Sequence record: OR544955 | Length of the DNA: 64,000 nucleotides | DNA from: Escherichia phage vB_EcoP_EP32B | Reading direction: 5' to 3' (one strand) | Shown here: in pieces, positions 9,423 through 63,127 of the stretch | How positions within the stretch are numbered: position 1 is the stretch's first letter | Layout of the letters: every line of letters begins with the position of its first letter | Notes under the pieces: model-generated | What the model was told of the DNA's origin: nothing | Seen by the model: the letters and a program-made list of their open reading frames with translations, nothing else | Databases searched by the model: none | Made by a program: the position numbers and the translations under genes

Positions 9423-10951
9423 TTAGATGCCTTTTACATATACACGGCGGAAGTAAGCGTTCTTACCAAGGCTGTTCAGGATAGACGGCATACCGGACTG
9501 GATGCGAGCACCTGGAGCCTGCAGGGAACTTTCAGCAAACGGGTTAACACCGATACCGTAACGAGTTTTGAAGCCCATTACCGGCTGGAAGTTCTTAGGA
9601 TCAGAACCACGCAGTGGGGTAAGTGCAACGTAAGGAGCATAGTAAATACCTGCATCCATTTCGTTAGCGCCTTTGTAACCAACGGTGAAGTAATCCTGTT
9701 TAGCATACTGGTCGATGTATACGCGGTATTTACCACCAAGTACACCGGCAAATACAGACTTAGTAGTGTCGGTATTAAAACCAGAAGCCAGACCCTGTGC
9801 AGCGTAAGAAATACCAGTATCAACTGAAGCCAGTACGTTAACTACGTTACGGGAAGCGATAATGAAGTTACCTTCACCACGACCGGTTTGACGAGCAATT
9901 TCAACTGCTTCTTTATCAATCTGGAACAACAGAGATTTAAAGCTTTCACCGGCCCAACGAGCACCACGGATATCAATCGGGTCCTGGAAGTCAAATACAC
10001 CAGCTTTAGAACCCGGAGTCAGGGTCATACCGGATTTACCAACCTGTGCTGAGTAGTTAATCCAATCAACAACTTCACGGTTGATTTCTAGCATAATTTC
10101 TGTAGCCAGAATACCACTCAGTTCAGCATCAGCATCCATACCGTGTACTGCACGGAGGTCTTGTGCTAATTCGATAGAGTAAGCAGCTTTCAGCTGGCGA
10201 GATTTAGCTTCGATAACTTGTTTATCGATACGGAAGCCCATTTCATTCCATGGGTTATCGGTAGAACCGTTGAAACCTTCCTGAAGTTCAGCGATAGAAG
10301 TAGCCATACCTTCAGCGATTTCTACCAGTGCACCAGCTTCCATTTGTTTCTTAACTTCGGCATCTAATTTAGCAGCATCGGTCGCATCGATTGTTACTTG
10401 AACAGAAGCTTGCAGATATACAGTACCAGTTTCCTGGAAGAAGTGAGTGCCAGAGCTGGGAATTTCTTAGCAGCACCCTGACCAGAGAACATCGCATCTG
10501 GGGCATACATCGGATGGAAAGCTTCTTTAGCGCCAGCAGCGATAGGGTCTTTACCATATACTGCACGGAGAGCAAATACCTGACCGGTCGGGCTGTTCAT
10601 AGGCTGAACACCACAAATATCAAAAGCGATCAGATTAGGAATAGCACGACGAACCATACCCATAACTGCTGGCCCAATTTGGGTTACTGCACCAGAGGTT
10701 TGACCTGCTGCGATGTTCTGAGCATTATAACCATGGTCACCACCAATTTCAGCTTCGGTCAAGAAAGAACCAAATGCCTGAGCGATTTTCTCGTCTTTAT
10801 ATTCAGGGGATACTTCGAAATCTTTTTCCTGGTTTTCGAAGATTTTAGCGATAATAGCCTGCTTGCTATTAGCGATTTCCGGCAGGCCTTCACCTTCCAG
10901 CAGTTCTTTCCATTTGTCTACGAGCTGAGCTTTAGTTTTGATAGTAGTCAT
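9423..10951 (-). pseudogene. 23: Major capsid protein gp23, disrupted by a frameshift near 10445-10455
   Basis: N-terminal 168 aa (ORF 10394..10951) and C-terminal part (ORF 9423..10343, frame open upstream to ~10450) both match T4 gp23 but lie in different frames. Confidence 0.85.
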
Positions 10952-11819: not shown

Positions 11820-12428
11820 ATGCTTTTAAACTCTCTGCGAGAGCTTTAAATGCTTCATCAGCACTGTTTTTGGTGATTTCCACCGAATTTTCTGATTCTG
11901 ATATTTGTTTAGGAGTAACCCAAGCATCTGGAGCAGAAGGTCCCCACACGGCATCTACGCCGACGGTTAATTTAAATCCTTCGTTCACGATACGGTACCC
12001 TTTATTGGTGTCGGTTAAAGAACCAAGACCACGAGAGGAAACACCTGGAATCCAACCAGCTCGTATATTAGCAGCTAATTTATCGCCGGGACCATGGTCG
12101 CCTTCAATAATTCTAGCGCGTCCATATACATCGTTTCCTTTCCACCACATATCTTCAATAATGATAGCGGCTTGCATAGGGTCAACATTTGCGCGAGGTG
12201 GATGATTTAATTCTCCAAGGGCTTGTTTGGTTGCGCTTTTTCCAAAACGCGTTTAGGATATAAACGTTTATTTCGGTTAACAACCTCTGCCTGAAGAAAA
12301 ATACCTTCTATATAAAGCCCTGGTTTTAAGCCAGAATCTTTTCCATCATGAGATTCCAACATTGGAACGCCATCAATAATCTCACCGGGTTGACCCCAAG
12401 TTTCAATAAGTAACTCGGGTTTATTCAT
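11815..12428 (-). pseudogene. 21: Prohead core protease gp21, disrupted by a frameshift near 12207-12235
   Basis: N-terminal 65 aa (ORF 12207..12428) and C-terminal 138 aa (ORF 11815..12177, frame open upstream to a stop at ~12250) are in different frames. Confidence 0.8.
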
Positions 12429-20552: not shown

Positions 20553-21281
20553 TTAATTCATAAACCCATCGTCAAATGGTGAATTTTGTCTACCACGGTT
20601 GTTAACTACTACATACGGCTCAACGTATTCACTTGCCTCTGAATTGATTTGCTCAACTTCAGAATATTCATCGATATTAATGTCATGGATACCGTCAAGA
20701 TTTCTAACAGGGTTAAGTTCCAAGTCACTAAATTCAGGTATATTGATACCTTCATTTTTCTGAAGCACCGGATTGATTTCTTCGCCAGAGTAAATAAACT
20801 TGCCTGCAGTAATTTTACGAATCGCATTTTTACCTACTTGATAGAACGGGTCATATGGTTCAACCCAGTTAATCTCAAACAAACTGTTGTCCATTGGGAA
20901 GTATATCAAATCACCTTCCTTGGGCTCCTGATTGTTGACCTGGTGTTTGAAAAGACCTGGGTTAATAGATAATGTAACTTCGTCTTGAACTTGCATTCCG
21001 AAGTTGCTGAAGAACGATTTCGCTCCTTCATAACCTTCAAAAGAGTTCAGATATGCAGCAAATTTCCATGCTTTAGTAAATTTATTTTTAAGGTCCTCAC
21101 CAAAGATAAGGTCCACGGCAACATATTCACGTGGAACATAAAAACATTCAATACCGCGCATCTGTATGCTTTCTGCCACTAGAACATCGGCTAATGTCTG
21201 ACTATTCTCATAATTATTAAAATTAGAATACCCACCACGATTTTCTAGCTTGGCGAAAAGATTTTTATCATAAGTTGCCAT
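20553..21281 (-). CDS. 14: Neck protein gp14
   Basis: 242 aa (T4 256); position. Confidence 0.8.
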
Positions 21282-37301: not shown

Positions 37302-37876
37302 TATGCAATCTCCATCTCACGAATCAAATCAGTAATAAACGAGTTTATATCTTCTTTTGCAACAATTTTTATTTTACGAAGTTTTTCATTATCTAATACT
37401 GCCGCTTCGTAAGTATCTACTGCAGCTAAAGGTCCTTTATATTGCGGATACTTACGAGCTTCATCACCTTTATCGTACCACACTAAAGGCTCGTCCGGAT
37501 ATGAAACTAAATTGTAAAATTTCTCACGATTTTCATTGATATGATAAAGAACTTGGTCTCCACCGGCATTAGCATATTTCTGAATAGAAGCTTGATACGC
37601 TGCTTCCTGAGATGTAATCCAACCATAATACGGGTCGTAGTTATCGTTACACATCAAAAGAACCCAGTATAATTGAGGGTTGCCATAAATTATGTTTGCT
37701 AGTTCTTCAGGACGCGGAGAGCCTTTAATATAATAAGAACGTAATCTATAATTGGCAGCAACACGCTTAAAGTACTCTTTATAGTTACGAAATATGTCTG
37801 TCATAGGAATAGTAGGTGCATTCTTATTAACTGTTTTAGCACTATATCCTATTGGGTCGAAGAATGTAAATAACAA
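37301..37876 (-). CDS. 53: Baseplate wedge protein gp53
   Basis: 191 aa; position upstream of gp5. Confidence 0.8.
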
Positions 37877-37903
37877 GATAGTCTCCTTCCAATATGAAAT
37901 TGG

Positions 37904-37926
37904 TATAAATAATAATACTATTTATA
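37904..37926. promoter_or_regulatory. Divergent late promoters for gene 4 (+) and gene 53 (-)
   Basis: TATAAATA on + at 37904-37911; TATTTATA on + at 37919-37926. Confidence 0.5.
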
Positions 37927-37937
37927 AGGAGGACAAC

Positions 37938-39134
37938 ATGGCCTACTCTGGTAAATGGGTCCCAAAAAATTTAAAAAAATACCGTGGAGACCATACCAAA
38001 ATAACGTATCGTTCAAACTGGGAAAAATTCTTTTTCGAATGGTTAGATAAAAATCCAGAAATTATTGCATGGGGTAGTGAAACAGCAGTAATTCCATATT
38101 TTTGTAATGCTGAAGGTAAAAAACGTCGATACTATATGGACATATGGATGAAAGATGCATCAGGTCAAGAGTTCTTTGTAGAAATAAAACCAAAGAAAGA
38201 AACTCAACCACCTATTAAGCCTGCAAATCTTACTACCGCAGCAAAGAAACGTTATATGAATGAAATATATACCTGGTCTGTGAACTGTGACAAATGGAAA
38301 GCTGCCTCAGCTATGAGCATATTCCAAATTATATCTGAAGGCGTACAAGCCCCTAAGATTGCTCAGTCTATGAATGAAAGAAAATGGATTGAGATAGGAT
38401 TAGAATACAAGAAAGCTAAAGAGAAAGGAATCACTGCAAAAGCATTTGCAGAATCAAAAGGAATAAAATACTCGTCGTTTACATCTGCAATGTCTAGATA
38501 TGCATCATCTATTAAGACCGCACAGAAAATTGAAACGCTTGAATCTAAACCTAAAAATAAACTCAATAAGCAAGAACGTCAACTTCTGATGATAAACTCG
38601 TTTCGCAGTTCAATACGAGAAAAGATTAGAAATGAAGGCGCAGCAGTAAACAACAAATCATCTAAGTGGTTTGTTGAAACAATTAAGAAAAGTGTAAAAG
38701 GTCATAAAGTAGTCAAGCCTACGCCAGGCAAAATTTATACTTACGTGTATGATGCTAAACATAAAGATACTCTGCCGTATTGGGACAGATATCCTTTGAT
38801 TATTTATTTAGGATTAGGTAAACATAATTTGATGTATGGATTAAACTTGCACTATATCCCACCTAAAGCACGACAACAGTTTCTTGAAGAATTGCTGAAG
38901 CAATATGCTAGCACAACTACTATTACTAATAACACAAAGTTGAAGATAGACTGGAGCAAGGTGAAAGGATTTCAAGGTGCTGACAAAATGATTAAAGCAT
39001 ACCTGCCTGGCCACATTAGAGGAACAATAACAGAAATAGCTCCTAAAGACTGGGCTAACATAATCATGTTACCTACTCAGCAGTTTATGTCAAAAGGAAA
39101 ACGTTTCTCTGCGAATACTGTTTGGAAATCTTAA
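37938..39134 (+). CDS. Head completion gp4-like N-terminus continuous with gp2-like (DNA end protector) region in a single 398 aa ORF
   Basis: ATG 37938 with AAGGAGG SD; one uninterrupted frame where T4 is recalled to have two genes (4 and 2). Confidence 0.5.
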
Positions 39135-39875: not shown

Positions 39876-40610
39876 ATGGAGCTAATCTTTTTAAGTGGCA
39901 TCAAACGTAGCGGTAAAGACACTACTGCTGATTACATCAATTCAAACTTTAAATCCGTAAAATACCAATTGGCATATCCGATTAAAGACGCTCTAGCAAT
40001 AGCCTGGGGACGTAAACATGCTGAAAATCCTAATGTATTCACAGAGTTGAAATACGAATACTTTGAAGGCATTGGATACGACCGTGAAACACCATTAAAT
40101 CTCAATAAGTTGGATGTTATTGAATTATTGGAAGAAGCGCTAATTTATTTGCAAAGCCAATATTTACCAATTAATAATGTTAAAGTATTATCATCGTTAG
40201 AAGGTGGATATTCATATCTAGATATTAAACCGTATGAAGCCCTGCGTGAAGCTATAAATAATATCAACGACACATGGTCAATCCGCCGTCTTATGCAAGC
40301 CCTCGGTACGGATGTTGTCGTTAATTTATTTGACCGTATGTATTGGGTTAAACTTTTTGCATTAAACTATATGGATTATATTGGAAGTGATTTCGATTAC
40401 TATGTCGTAACCGATACACGCCAAGTCCATGAAATGGAAACCGCTAGAGCGATGGGTGCTACAGTTATTCATGTGGTTCGCTCTGGTACGGAATCCACCG
40501 ATAAACATATTACAGAAGCTGGGTTGCCTATTGAAGAAGGCGATTTAGTTATTACAAACGACGGCTCTTTAGAAGAGCTTTATTCTAAAATTGAAACAAT
40601 CTTAAGGTAA
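39876..40610 (+). CDS. 1: Deoxynucleoside monophosphate kinase gp1
   Basis: 244 aa; N-terminal P-loop GIKRSGKDT. Confidence 0.85.
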   Translation: MELIFLSGIKRSGKDTTADYINSNFKSVKYQLAYPIKDALAIAWGRKHAENPNVFTELKYEYFEGIGYDRETPLNLNKLDVIELLEEALIYLQSQYLPINNVKVLSSLEGGYSYLDIKPYEALREAINNINDTWSIRRLMQALGTDVVVNLFDRMYWVKLFALNYMDYIGSDFDYYVVTDTRQVHEMETARAMGATVIHVVRSGTESTDKHITEAGLPIEEGDLVITNDGSLEELYSKIETILR

Positions 40611-40614
40611 TAAA

Positions 40615-41300
<686 letters not shown>

Positions 41301-41313
41301 TTTTCACAAAACA

Positions 41314-41348
41314 GTTTACATAAGGATGATGGTGTGATACTATCATCC
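41314..41348 (+). promoter_or_regulatory. PeSL-like early promoter with stem-loop
   Basis: GTTTAC 41314-41319, TGATACTAT 41335-41343, inverted repeat GGATGAT/ATCATCC flanking the -10. Confidence 0.55.
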
Positions 41349-41377
41349 TATCAAATAAACAACCTCAAGGAAATAAA

Positions 41378-41440
41378 ATGAAAACATATCAAGAATTTAT
41401 ATATGTTATAGTAGTCCTATCAAAACAAGAGGATAATAAA
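41378..41440 (+). other. Remnant internal-protein (IPI-type) start codon region fused to a partial PeSL
   Basis: ATG with SD encoding MKTYQEFI (capsid-targeting-sequence-like), running directly into TATGTTATAGTAGTCCTATCAAAACAAGAGGA and a second start at 41441. Confidence 0.45.
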
Positions 41441-41626
41441 ATGAAACGCGCTGAACTGATTCGTAATGTTGCTGTAGTAATTGCTTCAATGGCTTTTAGT
41501 TTTTCGATGTTTGTAGGATTCATTTGTGGACTACTGACAACAACTGAAAACTCTATCTCATTGGTAGTAGCATTTCTAATCGGCTTAATCGCTATCGTTA
41601 TGGATAAAATTGCAAAAGGTGAGTAA
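41441..41626 (+). CDS. Small hydrophobic membrane protein (61 aa; 82 aa if started at 41378)
   Basis: ATG 41441 with GAGGA SD; predicted TM helices. Confidence 0.5.
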   Translation: MKRAELIRNVAVVIASMAFSFSMFVGFICGLLTTTENSISLVVAFLIGLIAIVMDKIAKGE

Positions 41627-41989
41627 ATGAAATATCATGTATATGCAGATTTTGAAGCAAATCCTTCTAAAGACCATGATTGTCGTTTGATACGCAGACC
41701 ATTTGATTCAGCAGCTCAAGCCTGGGCTTGGATTAAATCTAAATCGCCTGGTTATATGTTCTTTGAAGTAGTCGATGACAATGGTACACTGCATCCGGCC
41801 CCTACAGAAACTATTAATTTCCTTCTGTTTGCTGGTTATGACTGTTATCCTCTTGGTGGTATTGACGACCTTGTTGCTACAGGAAAAACTGTTGAGGCTC
41901 TTCGCGAAATTTATAAAAACGCAGAAGAAAATTTTGACTGGTATCATATTGTTGATGCTCATACCTTTGAAATAGTGGAACATTCATGA
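41627..41989 (+). CDS. Hypothetical protein
   Basis: 120 aa ORF, ATGA overlap with upstream. Confidence 0.5.
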   Translation: MKYHVYADFEANPSKDHDCRLIRRPFDSAAQAWAWIKSKSPGYMFFEVVDDNGTLHPAPTETINFLLFAGYDCYPLGGIDDLVATGKTVEALREIYKNAEENFDWYHIVDAHTFEIVEHS

Positions 41990-42276
41990 TTCTTTATGCT
42001 AAGGTAAAATCCGTTGAGAATGGATATGAAAGCGACCGGGGTGCAGCTAAAGCACTAGTCGATGACTACGGTATTCTGACTAACTTTGAGGTTGAAAAGG
42101 TTTATATCGACCGTTCATCTTCACAGGTTAAATTACTCTGTGAAGACAATAAATTTAACACAGTTAATTTTGATTTCTTTATTGAAACTGAATCAGGTCC
42201 TCTTGAATATGATATTTTCAAGAATCCTTTGAAATTACGTTGCATTGAATATAATTACATTAATATGGTACGGTGA
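41986..42276 (+). CDS. Hypothetical protein
   Basis: 96 aa ORF overlapping previous stop. Confidence 0.5.
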   Translation: MILYAKVKSVENGYESDRGAAKALVDDYGILTNFEVEKVYIDRSSSQVKLLCEDNKFNTVNFDFFIETESGPLEYDIFKNPLKLRCIEYNYINMVR

Positions 42277-42851: not shown

Positions 42852-42990
42852 GGCCCTGTAGCTCAATGGTGCAGTAGCTGCTCTGGAAAACCTGTTCCAA
42901 ATTGCAACAGAAGAACGCGAAGAAGTTACATTATGGATTGAAGATAACGCAGGTCTGAATCTCCAGGACGCGATCTCATTATCCCACAAT
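42852..42990 (+). other. Non-coding region with tRNA-like fragments (probable decayed tRNA cluster)
   Basis: GGCCCTGTAGCTCAATGGT resembles acceptor/D-arm; ...GATCTCATTATCC resembles a tRNA 3' region; no complete cloverleaf could be folded by eye. Confidence 0.3.
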
Positions 42991-43039: not shown

Positions 43040-43078
43040 GTTTACAACAAGATAGGGCTATGTTATAGTAGTCCTATC
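43040..43078 (+). promoter_or_regulatory. PeSL-like early promoter with stem-loop
   Basis: GTTTAC 43040-43045; TGTTATAGT 43061-43069; inverted repeat GATAGGGCT/AGTCCTATC. Confidence 0.55.
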
Positions 43079-43097
43079 AAAACAAATGGAGTCCACA

Positions 43098-46737: not shown

Positions 46738-47226
46738 ATGAATATATTTGAAATGCTTCGTAATGACGAAGGTCTTAGACTGACTTTATACAAAGACACT
46801 GAAGGCTTTTGGACGATTGGCATAGGCCACTTGGTAACAAAGAACCCGTCTTTAGCCGTAGCTAAAGCTGAACTTGACAGAATGATCGGTCGTAAATGCA
46901 ACGGTACAATTACCCTTGATGAGGCTGAAAAGCTATTTAATGAAGACGTCGATAAAGCCGTTCGCGGAATCTTGGGTAATGCTAAACTTAAACCGGTATA
47001 TGATTCTTTAGATGCAGTTCGTCGATGTGCATTGGTCAATATGGTCTTCCAAATGGGTGTAGCAGGCGTTGCTGGTTTTACTAATTCTCTTCGTATGCTT
47101 CAACAGAAGCGTTGGGATGAAGCGGCAGTAAATCTAGCCCAATCTAAATGGTACCGTCAGACACCTAATCGAGCGAAACGCGTAATCTCAACATTTAAAA
47201 CAGGAACTTGGAAAGCGTATATATGA
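46738..47226 (+). CDS. e: Endolysin (T4 lysozyme, gene e)
   Basis: MNIFEMLR...EGLRL.LYKDTEG..TIGIGHL; 162 aa. Confidence 0.9.
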
Positions 47227-47504
47227 AAACATATAGTGAATTTTTATCAGAATCTATTCTTAACGAAGCTACTGACACATTTGCAACTAAGCTAGGTGCA
47301 GCTTTGGTTGAAGCTGAAAGTCTATTAGCACGTATTTCTGAACTTGCCAGTAAGATAGATACTCGCAAATTTGAGCGCACCAGTGATATCGTTAAGCTTG
47401 AAGCCTTGTTACGTATGTGCGATAAACCGGAAGAAATCGCTAAGAACGGCTCGCTGATGAAACAACGTCTTGAAAAATATATTTCAGGCGCTTCAGAAAA
47501 ATAG
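47223..47504 (+). CDS. Internal protein (IPII-like) with capsid targeting sequence
   Basis: 93 aa beginning [11 protein letters not shown], the CTS pattern of T4 internal proteins. Confidence 0.6.
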
Positions 47505-47984: not shown

Positions 47985-48056
47985 ATGAAAACTCCAACCT
48001 GTAATAATGTCGAGCCCAAGTGCGGTAATGGGTTGCCACGGAATGGCCCAACATAA
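47985..48056 (+). CDS. Possible 23 aa Cys-containing micropeptide
   Basis: ATG 47985 after AAGGAA SD; MKTPTCNNVEPKCGNGLPRNGPT. Confidence 0.25.
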   Translation: MKTPTCNNVEPKCGNGLPRNGPT

Positions 48057-48068
48057 AAGAGAAACTAA

Positions 48069-48590
48069 ATGAGAACATTTTTAACTGGACCTTATCTATC
48101 CCTGATGAATGCTTTTACACACCATTCTGATGCTAGAGTAGAAGAAATTTGTAAGAACGGTTATGTCCCACCATTTGAAGACGTACTCAAGCAGTACTGT
48201 ACACTTCGTTTAGACGGTGGCAGACAATCCGGTAAATCAATTGCTGTGACTAACTTTGCTGCTAATTGGCTGTATGATGGCGGAACAGTTATTGTTCTTT
48301 CTAATACTTCAGCTTATGCTAAAATTTCTGCTGGTAACATTGAAAAAGAATTTTCTCGATATTCTAGCGATGATATTCGATTCCGTTTATTTACTGATTC
48401 TGTTCGTAGTTTTATTGGCAATGAAGGTTCTAAATTCCGTGGATTAACGCTTTCTCGTATTCTGTATATAATTGACGAGCCTATTAAAGCTCCTGATATG
48501 GATAAGATTTACAATGTCCATATTAAAACAGTTACTGTTGCAAAAGCAAATATTGCATCGGCGGTAATGCTCGTCCTCAATTTTTTGTGA
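48069..48590 (+). CDS. Hypothetical protein with P-loop-like motif
   Basis: 173 aa; GGRQSGKS. Confidence 0.5.
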   Translation: MRTFLTGPYLSLMNAFTHHSDARVEEICKNGYVPPFEDVLKQYCTLRLDGGRQSGKSIAVTNFAANWLYDGGTVIVLSNTSAYAKISAGNIEKEFSRYSSDDIRFRLFTDSVRSFIGNEGSKFRGLTLSRILYIIDEPIKAPDMDKIYNVHIKTVTVAKANIASAVMLVLNFL

Positions 48591-51760: not shown

Positions 51761-51969
51761 ATATACATTATCCACATCCATATGACCCAAAGAATAAGGC
51801 AGTAATTATTCGTCAATGGGAACGCATTTGCCGTACTAAATGCCCAATTAATAGTCCACATGATGTAGATAAAGACTATATTGGAACATTCGTTGAATAT
51901 ACCTTTATTGATAAGAAAGGTCGTAAACAACATGTAGAAGAATATTGCTTAAAGGTTACATGGTTATGA
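51742..51969 (+). CDS. Hypothetical protein
   Basis: 75 aa ORF overlapping tk 5' end. Confidence 0.4.
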   Translation: MGTIIMNIHYPHPYDPKNKAVIIRQWERICRTKCPINSPHDVDKDYIGTFVEYTFIDKKGRKQHVEEYCLKVTWL

Positions 51970-52496
51970 GTCTTACTGCCGCCCATAACTATAAAGAACG
52001 TGGCATGGGTGTATTAGTTCTTAAACCGGCTATTGATACTCGCGATTCAAAAGGTGAAATAGTCTCTCGTATTGGTATTCGTCAGGACGCCAATATAATT
52101 ACAAAAGACATGGATATCTTTGAATTCTATAAATGGGCTGCAGCACAAAAGGATATTCATTGTGTATTTGTTGACGAAGCTCAGTTCTTAACTACTGAAA
52201 AGGTGTATCAACTTAGTCGTATTGTTGACGTATACAATGTGCCGGTAATGGCATATGGACTACGAACAGATTTTAAAGGTAATCTATTTGAAGGTTCTCA
52301 AGCATTAATGGCTATTGCCGATAAGCTTGTTGAACTTAAAGGTGTCTGTCATTGCGGTAAAAAGGCCACAATGGTAGCTAGAGTCACGGAAGACGGACTT
52401 CCAATTACAGATGGCAGTCAAATTGAAATTGGTGATACTGATAGATATGTGTCATTATGCCGGAAGCATTGGAATGATTTGACAGGGTTGTTATAA
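51960..52496 (+). CDS. tk: Thymidine kinase lacking the N-terminal P-loop (5'-truncated tk)
   Basis: Matches TK from ...AAHNYKERGM through C-terminal Zn motif CHCGKK...LCRKHW; no GxxxxGKS upstream in any frame; in-frame stop at 51924. Confidence 0.7.
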   Translation: MVMSLTAAHNYKERGMGVLVLKPAIDTRDSKGEIVSRIGIRQDANIITKDMDIFEFYKWAAAQKDIHCVFVDEAQFLTTEKVYQLSRIVDVYNVPVMAYGLRTDFKGNLFEGSQALMAIADKLVELKGVCHCGKKATMVARVTEDGLPITDGSQIEIGDTDRYVSLCRKHWNDLTGLL

Positions 52497-63088: not shown

Positions 63089-63127
63089 GTAATAAATACC
63101 CTTATCTATTTAAGGTAAGGGTTTATC

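Follow-up and report, generated by a model that had tools for sequence, protein, structure and literature searches.

The internal-protein (IP) locus of Escherichia phage vB_EcoP_EP32B, as written in the record OR544955, contains a join at position 41402 at which the first eight codons of an IP gene run directly into the middle of the PeSL (promoter-early stem-loop) cassette located in front of the next gene, trna.4. Comparison with related phages indicates that this join was probably created when a stretch of DNA was dropped in the course of building the record, at the assembly or consensus step, a cause to which the pattern of gaps in the same sequence points. The elements on both sides of the join are real and ordinary, namely 57B, the PeSL of the IP gene, eight IP codons, the 3' part of a PeSL and trna.4. 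Hereinafter, the window means the whole stretch of DNA that was analyzed (64,000 nucleotides).

Structure of the locus around position 41402

The DNA in the window is that of a T-even phage of the RB69 group, genus Mosigvirus. Its closest match was E. coli O157 typing phage 3 (O157tp3, KP869101), with 97.9% identity over 24 kb. The following features were located at the IP locus and next to it:

39876–40610: gene 1 (dNMP kinase)
40615–40845: 57A
40845–41300, plus strand: 57B, an intact Acb1-type 2H phosphodiesterase gene, the conserved left neighbour of the IP locus
41315–41349, plus strand: complete PeSL before the first IP gene (promoter scan, fold, relatives)
41367–41401, plus strand: ribosome-binding site AAGGA (41367–41371) and the first eight IP codons, MKTYQEFI (41378–41401)
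41378–41626, plus strand: 82-aa open reading frame made by the join (ORF list)
41402, no strand: the join (BLAST segment ends 41402/41402; base-by-base comparison)
41402–41428, plus strand: 3' part of the trna.4 PeSL, a 27-nt exact repeat
41441–41626, plus strand: trna.4, encoding a predicted two-helix membrane protein of 61 aa, with its own ribosome-binding site GAGGA (41429–41433)
41627–41989: trna.3 (phrog_1411), directly after trna.4
41986–42276: trna.2
43041–43085, plus strand: another complete PeSL of this type, 1.6 kb farther downstream, with −35 TTTACA (43041–43046) and a hairpin of −16.0 kcal/mol (z = −3.86)

The 57B protein matched the Pfam family PF23474 (Acb1) with E = 1.8e-58, as well as phrog_755, and was 98.7–100% identical to Mosigvirus 57B. 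The element at 41315–41349 combines an early promoter with a stable stem-loop in an intergenic position and, hence, corresponds to the definition of a PeSL. According to the promoter scan, its promoter consists of −35 TTTACA (41315–41320), a 17-nt spacer and an extended −10 TG-TACTAT (hexamer 41338–41343). It fits the PST/T4 PeSL consensus, which is TTTACW-N17-TAYWAT (PMC4122927). Folding revealed a hairpin at 41323–41349 (−15.4 kcal/mol, z = −4.39) that overlaps the spacer and the −10 of this upstream promoter. The whole element is near-identical across all Mosigvirus relatives.

The 100 bp 5' of the ATG at 41378 and the first 25 nt of the open reading frame aligned with the start of the first IP gene in every Mosigvirus examined; O157tp3, RB69, phiC120, HY126, ESh27 and UGJNEcP2 were included in the alignment. 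All eight residues of MKTYQEFI matched the first residues of RB69 ORF156c, and they matched other IPs too. Judging by this alignment, the likeness of the 41378 region to IP-gene starts is not accidental, and MKTYQEFI is recognizable as the N-terminal capsid-targeting signal common to T-even internal proteins. Six-frame translation of the window revealed only two starts of the MKTYQEFI type. The IP targeting signal ends with the gp21 processing site I/L-x-E, for example FIAE. No such protease site was found after the signal at 41378, where the frame continues as I-Y-V-I-V. An IP body (~70–190 aa, e.g., Pfam IPI_T4) is also missing after codon 8, the frame passing through a former non-coding PeSL and then through Trna.4; PF11634 matched the O157tp3 protein and not the window ORF.

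The 24-nt string ATGAAAACATATCAAGAATTTATA was found as an exact copy at the starts of unrelated proteins (MKTYQEFINEG..., MKTYQEFIDLN...) on three JGI metagenome contigs (L054, L055 and L056), in which the sequence upstream of the string is unlike that of the window. Nucleotide-level conservation of the targeting-signal codons appears to extend far outside the coliphages.

At 41402, 25 nt into the first IP gene, the match to the IP start stops and that to the trna.4 PeSL begins; the left and right alignments overlap by 1 nt (T). The stretch missing at this point is 614 bp in comparison with O157tp3 and about 270–670 bp in comparison with the relatives. The sequence that starts at 41402 is TATGTTATAGTAGTCCTATCAAAACAAGAGGA; counted from this base, TATGTTATAGTAGTCCTATCAAAACAA is followed by GAGGA and then by the second ATG (41441). 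The first 27 nt are an exact copy of 43059–43085, and the start of this repeat coincides with the gap's right edge. On the left, the edge coincides with the end of the similarity among IP genes. An assembly collapse between two repeat copies was rejected, since the sides of the join share 1 nt only.

The fragment at 41402–41428 retains 3 nt at the end of the 5' stem arm, together with the loop, the −10 TATAGT (41407–41412) and the 3' arm. Most of the 5' arm is gone, the promoter scan revealed no −35 at the right spacing in this fragment, and folding revealed no hairpin at 41378–41445 (z = −0.37 vs. −5.0 for the intact O157tp3 element). The fragment therefore falls outside the definition of a PeSL, which includes −35, −10 and a full stem-loop.

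These results agree with much of what had been noted from the DNA letters. All of the elements named in the preliminary description, i.e., a promoter, an SD, the ATG at 41378, a part of a PeSL and the ATG at 41441, are present where that description places them. The locus was correctly placed at the 57B-to-ipI position, as 57B ends at 41300 and the relatives hold IP genes there. The proposed alignment of the 57B–ipI region revealed that the MKTYQEFI codons are related to IP genes and bore out the description of MKTYQEFI as an internal-protein targeting N-terminus, which aligns with the first IP gene of every Mosigvirus examined; it is not T4's own IPI start, which is MKTFKEFTS. The sequence after the eight codons had been attributed to the 3' part of a PeSL, and its exact identity to the last 27 nt of the complete downstream element supports this. 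A full ipI located elsewhere had also been suggested as a check; tblastn revealed no IPI-like body anywhere in the 64-kb window.

One detail was overlooked in that description: the ATG at 41378 and the ATG at 41441 share a frame, with no stop codon between them. The resulting 82-aa ORF consists of eight signal codons, 13 formerly untranslated PeSL codons and the whole of Trna.4. Trna.4 itself is 100% identical to the RB69 protein and 84% identical to T4 Trna.4, which is annotated as a predicted membrane protein; the hydropathy profile revealed that it is strongly hydrophobic. It matched phrog_1692 with E = 1.4e-32 over profile positions 1–61 of 61, and this full profile match, together with the position upstream of trna.3 and trna.2, assigns it to the Trna.4 family. 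The family profile aligns to residues 22–82 of the 82-aa ORF only, which indicates that the native trna.4 start is 41441. No exact protein on record was found for the 82-aa fusion or for the truncated 185-aa gp23 described below.

Note that many relatives contain an in-frame ATG (ATGAGTAAATGGAGAAATAAAATG) upstream of trna.4. In ESh27 (L040, 1064–1270), a 68-aa product (MSKWRNKMKRAE...) is annotated from the upstream ATG; the longer product probably reflects how the start was annotated, not a true extension of the protein.

The internal-protein locus in related phages

In all matching INPHARED phages, the query was split in two by extra DNA at the IP locus. The O157tp3 locus contains two IP genes, encoding a 95-aa IPI homologue (Pfam IPI_T4) and an 87-aa protein, and the RB69 locus contains ORF156c and ipI. 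One IP gene each was found in phiC120, HY126 and UGJNEcP2, and two were found in ESh27. Every IP gene of these relatives opens with ATGAAAAC.TAT.AAGAATT.AT and has a PeSL in front. Another intact IP gene is present in the window (47223–47504, 93 aa, phrog_3499), adjoining the lysozyme gene. Internal proteins are diverse injected anti-restriction proteins that have only the targeting signal in common (PMC3012670; PMC12373910); T4 IPI, Ip2 and Ip3 each block one specific GmrSD-type restriction enzyme (PMC12373910; PMC3012670).

A survey of IMG/VR recovered 33 loci with 57B, and those with a readable 57B–trna.4 interval contained zero, one or two IP genes. Two of them, L005 (IMGVR_UViG_3300030021_000002) and L006 (IMGVR_UViG_3300029310_000133), have no IP gene between 57B and trna.4. 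Their 57B is 99–100% identical and their trna.4 100% identical to those of the window, and the spacer of 82–83 bp comprises a single intact PeSL with zero leftover IP codons. According to the mechanism described by Arbiol et al. (PMC2839356), this is the arrangement that recombination between two PeSLs is expected to leave. The existence of such clean loci favours the reading in which sequence was dropped from the record.

The same two relatives bear on a second explanation, which is the main rival, namely a genuine illegitimate deletion that took the body and stop codon of one or two IP genes along with the −35 and 5' arm of the trna.4 PeSL. We consider it rather unlikely. Mosigvirus relatives without IP genes do exist, but in these the PeSL is clean and no codons are left over. 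The locus is non-essential and hyperplastic (PMC3012670; PMC12373910), and the right breakpoint lies at the stem–loop boundary of the PeSL hairpin, PeSL crossovers having been mapped inside the loop (PMC2839356); the overlap at the join, however, is 1 nt only. The fusion is in frame and stop-free, yet the join resembles 15 other gaps in the window, likewise abrupt and private, of which no fewer than two would be lethal as written. In addition, the exact join was absent from INPHARED phages, IMG/VR, JGI metagenomes and GTDB genomes, so that it has no independent support in these four collections. A search for the ancestral allele using ATGAAAACATATCAAGAATTTAT(A) yielded IP genes of T4-like phages and of environmental contigs that are unrelated to it, so that microhomology at the join is bounded only at about 0–2 nt.

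The preliminary description had offered a third explanation, a PeSL-mediated module exchange in which the ipI body was swapped for the gene of a 61-aa membrane protein and a recombination scar was left behind. PeSLs flank the IP genes in all relatives, and modules of T4-type phages are described as being shuffled through recombination between PeSLs (PMC2839356; PMC4122927). However, the 61-aa gene is the resident trna.4 of T4, RB69 and every relative, and nothing new was imported. Moreover, such an exchange should leave a PeSL that is chimeric but complete, like the one in L005 and L006, whereas here the left edge lies in coding sequence and the PeSL is truncated. This makes a module exchange highly improbable. 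Thus, the ipI body is indeed missing, but it was not replaced by another gene and the locus is simply shortened; the idea of a PeSL-type scar conflicts with the left edge inside coding sequence, the 1-nt overlap and the 15 further private gaps.

A break near the same point was found in the incomplete, reference-guided record OQ031495 (UNVERIFIED Escherichia phage MRostami-2023e), in which Ns start 2 nt upstream of the join position, right after GAATTTAT of the first IP gene. This phage was considered as a sibling of that in the window and rejected: it is 99.7% identical locally, but ~98.3% identical overall, and its other runs of Ns do not coincide with the gaps in the window. Between two N runs, OQ031495 (L002/L049; L049 24134–24458) contains a fragment with two mismatches to the 3' half of T4 ipI. 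Possible sources of the fragment are mixed reads and a T4-type ipI allele carried by a Mosigvirus backbone.

Other missing stretches and the origin of the join

The whole window was aligned to O157tp3, and stretches of at least 20 bp were counted. Sixteen such O157tp3 stretches (24 to 4925 bp), the one at the IP join included, were missing from the window, at the following positions (sizes in bp are given in brackets):

1840 (50), 10448 (34), 12235–12249 (28), 21224 (36)
38312 (77), 41402 (614), 42635 (24), 42870 (4925), 45070 (92), 45913 (35)
47992 (419), 49578 (146), 51972 (446), 60076 (133), 62239 (216), 63089 (190)

The extra sequence in the window relative to O157tp3 amounted to 15 bp in total, with no stretch of 20 bp or more. 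A further difference was found at 48532, where the window is 4 bp shorter than O157tp3. Most of the joins are abrupt, with an overlap of 0–2 nt. The join at 63089 has a 14-nt direct repeat, and this gap may be a natural variant. The density of mismatches beside the gap edges, in a rough by-eye count on the flanks, appeared no higher than the 2% background. In this respect the edges do not resemble low-quality contig ends, which speaks against a dropped stretch.

Several of the missing stretches are retained by other phages. RB69 retains those at 10448, 21224 and 38312, OQ031495 retains those at 38312, 45070 and 45913, and the 77 bp missing at 38312 are present in the IMG/VR relatives L006 and L007. 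A comparison of O157tp3 with RB69 over the same region revealed none of the small gaps and only module-level differences, namely in the uvsY.-1/-2 region, a divergent segment near wac, the IP locus and the tRNA region. The 42870 join was absent from INPHARED phages and IMG/VR, the two collections searched.

A number of genes are damaged by the gaps. In gene 23 (major capsid protein, minus strand), the 34-bp gap at 10448 divides the sequence between the ORFs 10394–10951 and 9423–10343, with residues 1–171 in frame −1 and residues 180–520 in frame −3, and the ORF stops after 185 aa. Gene 21 (prohead protease, minus strand) contains a gap of ~28 bp at 12235–12249, with residues 1–65 and 75–213 in different frames. 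Gene 4 (head completion) lacks its stop codon and the 25 codons before it owing to the 77-bp gap at 38312, and it continues in frame into gene 2 (DNA end protector) as a fusion in the ORF 37794–39134. Twelve codons of gp14 (neck protein) are removed in frame by the gap at 21224. The first 19 codons of tdk (thymidine kinase, ORF 51945–52496), including the P-loop, are lost in the 446-bp gap at 51972, which also takes two small ORFs. The second IP gene, corresponding to the 109-aa MKTYQEFITE protein of O157tp3 and adjoining denV, is cut right after ATGAAAAC at 47992 (window 47985–48034), and ~419 bp are missing there; the intact 93-aa IP gene at 47223–47504 is unaffected. The 4925-bp gap at 42870/42871 extends from nt 19 of a tRNA-Met gene to the middle of a small ORF. 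ARAGORN detected no tRNA gene in the whole window; the relatives have tRNA-Met and tRNA-Arg in the 42870 region. Several smaller gaps frameshift conserved accessory ORFs, and the broken conserved ORFs in the window amount to 10/85.

It is well established that a T4-type phage is not viable without gp23 and gp21. Of these, gp23 is counted among the essential capsid proteins (PMC3012670). Since genes 23 and 21 are both frameshifted, the record as written cannot represent a viable phage and, therefore, contains errors of the kind seen at 41402. The IP join is likelier to be a record error because 15 further abrupt private gaps are present in the window, two of them frameshifting these genes. The characteristics of a dropped stretch were found together, i.e., an abrupt and private join, companion gaps that break essential genes, and differences directed only toward loss.

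It can be assumed that the reconstruction reached the end of the shared targeting codons and restarted at the start of the repeated PeSL segment. Both edges would be points where read placement fails, and the variable part between the shared modules would have been left unplaced and dropped; alternatively, contigs may have ended at repeats and then been abutted. Two routes are conceivable. The contigs of a patchy assembly could have been arranged along a reference and placed end to end with no Ns between them, or a consensus from read mapping could have been produced with zero-coverage positions deleted. T-even DNA is heavily modified, and such DNA generally tends toward patchy sequencing coverage. 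RB69 DNA carries arabinosyl-hmC (PMC6024577). The real phage would probably have one or two IP genes between 57B and trna.4, like its relatives.

Three further considerations weigh against a dropped stretch. The IP locus is non-essential and highly variable, and a real loss there would be tolerable. The larger gaps (614, 4925 and 446 bp) affect only non-essential regions, and they may have arisen in another way than the small gaps within essential genes. Finally, a stop-free in-frame fusion is expected by chance in only about one in six cases.

Deliberate deletion of the IP gene or genes in the laboratory, yielding an engineered phage, was also considered, and it is the least credible of the explanations. 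The first codons are kept and the downstream gene retains its ribosome-binding site, but the ends of the deletion do not look designed, as it cuts the hairpin and removes the −35 of the next gene. No cloning scar or foreign sequence was found at the join, and essential genes are interrupted by many other gaps in this record.

Significance and comparison with known systems

As many short stretches are missing, gene-content calls made from the record are unreliable, including the absent IP genes, the absent tRNAs, the truncated tdk and the fusion of gene 4 to gene 2. Taken at face value, the locus would suggest the loss of an anti-restriction protein or an odd PeSL recombinant; the result matters mainly as a caution.

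It is improbable that the join is real in the full sense, i.e., that an RB69-like phage lost its 57B-proximal IP gene or genes through a break atop the PeSL hairpin and uses the strong IP promoter and ribosome-binding site to express a signal-bearing 82-aa Trna.4 without a protease site. If it were, the IP promoter, with the IP ribosome-binding site, would drive trna.4, trna.3 and trna.2 directly, with no hairpin between. Initiation at 41378 would give an 82-aa Trna.4 with a 21-residue extension, MKTYQEFIYVIVVLSKQEDNK, and initiation at 41441 would give the normal 61-aa protein. The extension would include eight of the ~10 signal residues and no I/L-x-E site. Since Trna.4 is strongly hydrophobic, packaging of the 82-aa product into heads seems unlikely. 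Such a phage would lack the injected inhibitor or inhibitors encoded at the IP locus and would be a natural test of whether the targeting signal drags a small membrane protein into the prohead or is merely tolerated. Even so, it would represent one more variant at a long-known variable locus and no new kind of system.

The polymorphic ipI locus of T-even phages was described by Repoila et al. (1994, EMBO J 13:4181), as cited in PMC3012670 and PMC12373910. The window is similar to it in the position between 57B and trna.4 and in the MKTYQEFI... signal start. However, the variants described in the cited accounts are whole alternative IP genes, whereas the window keeps eight codons with no protease site and no body; the IP truncation in the window is probably not biological. 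OQ031495 is comparable in that its reconstruction breaks near the same IP-start point, 2 nt upstream of the join. The two are different phages, and OQ031495 marks the unresolved stretch with Ns, whereas the window abuts the flanks without Ns.

With regard to PeSL cassettes (Arbiol et al. 2010, PMC2839356; Comeau et al. 2014, PMC4122927), the element at 41315–41349 is a complete one of the T4/PST type and that at 41402–41428 is partial. In PeSL-mediated shuffling the crossover takes place within PeSL homology and a whole chimeric PeSL is left, whereas in the window coding sequence is joined to the middle of a PeSL. The IMG/VR loci L005 and L006 are like the window in having 57B and trna.4 with no IP gene, and unlike it in having an intact PeSL without leftover codons.
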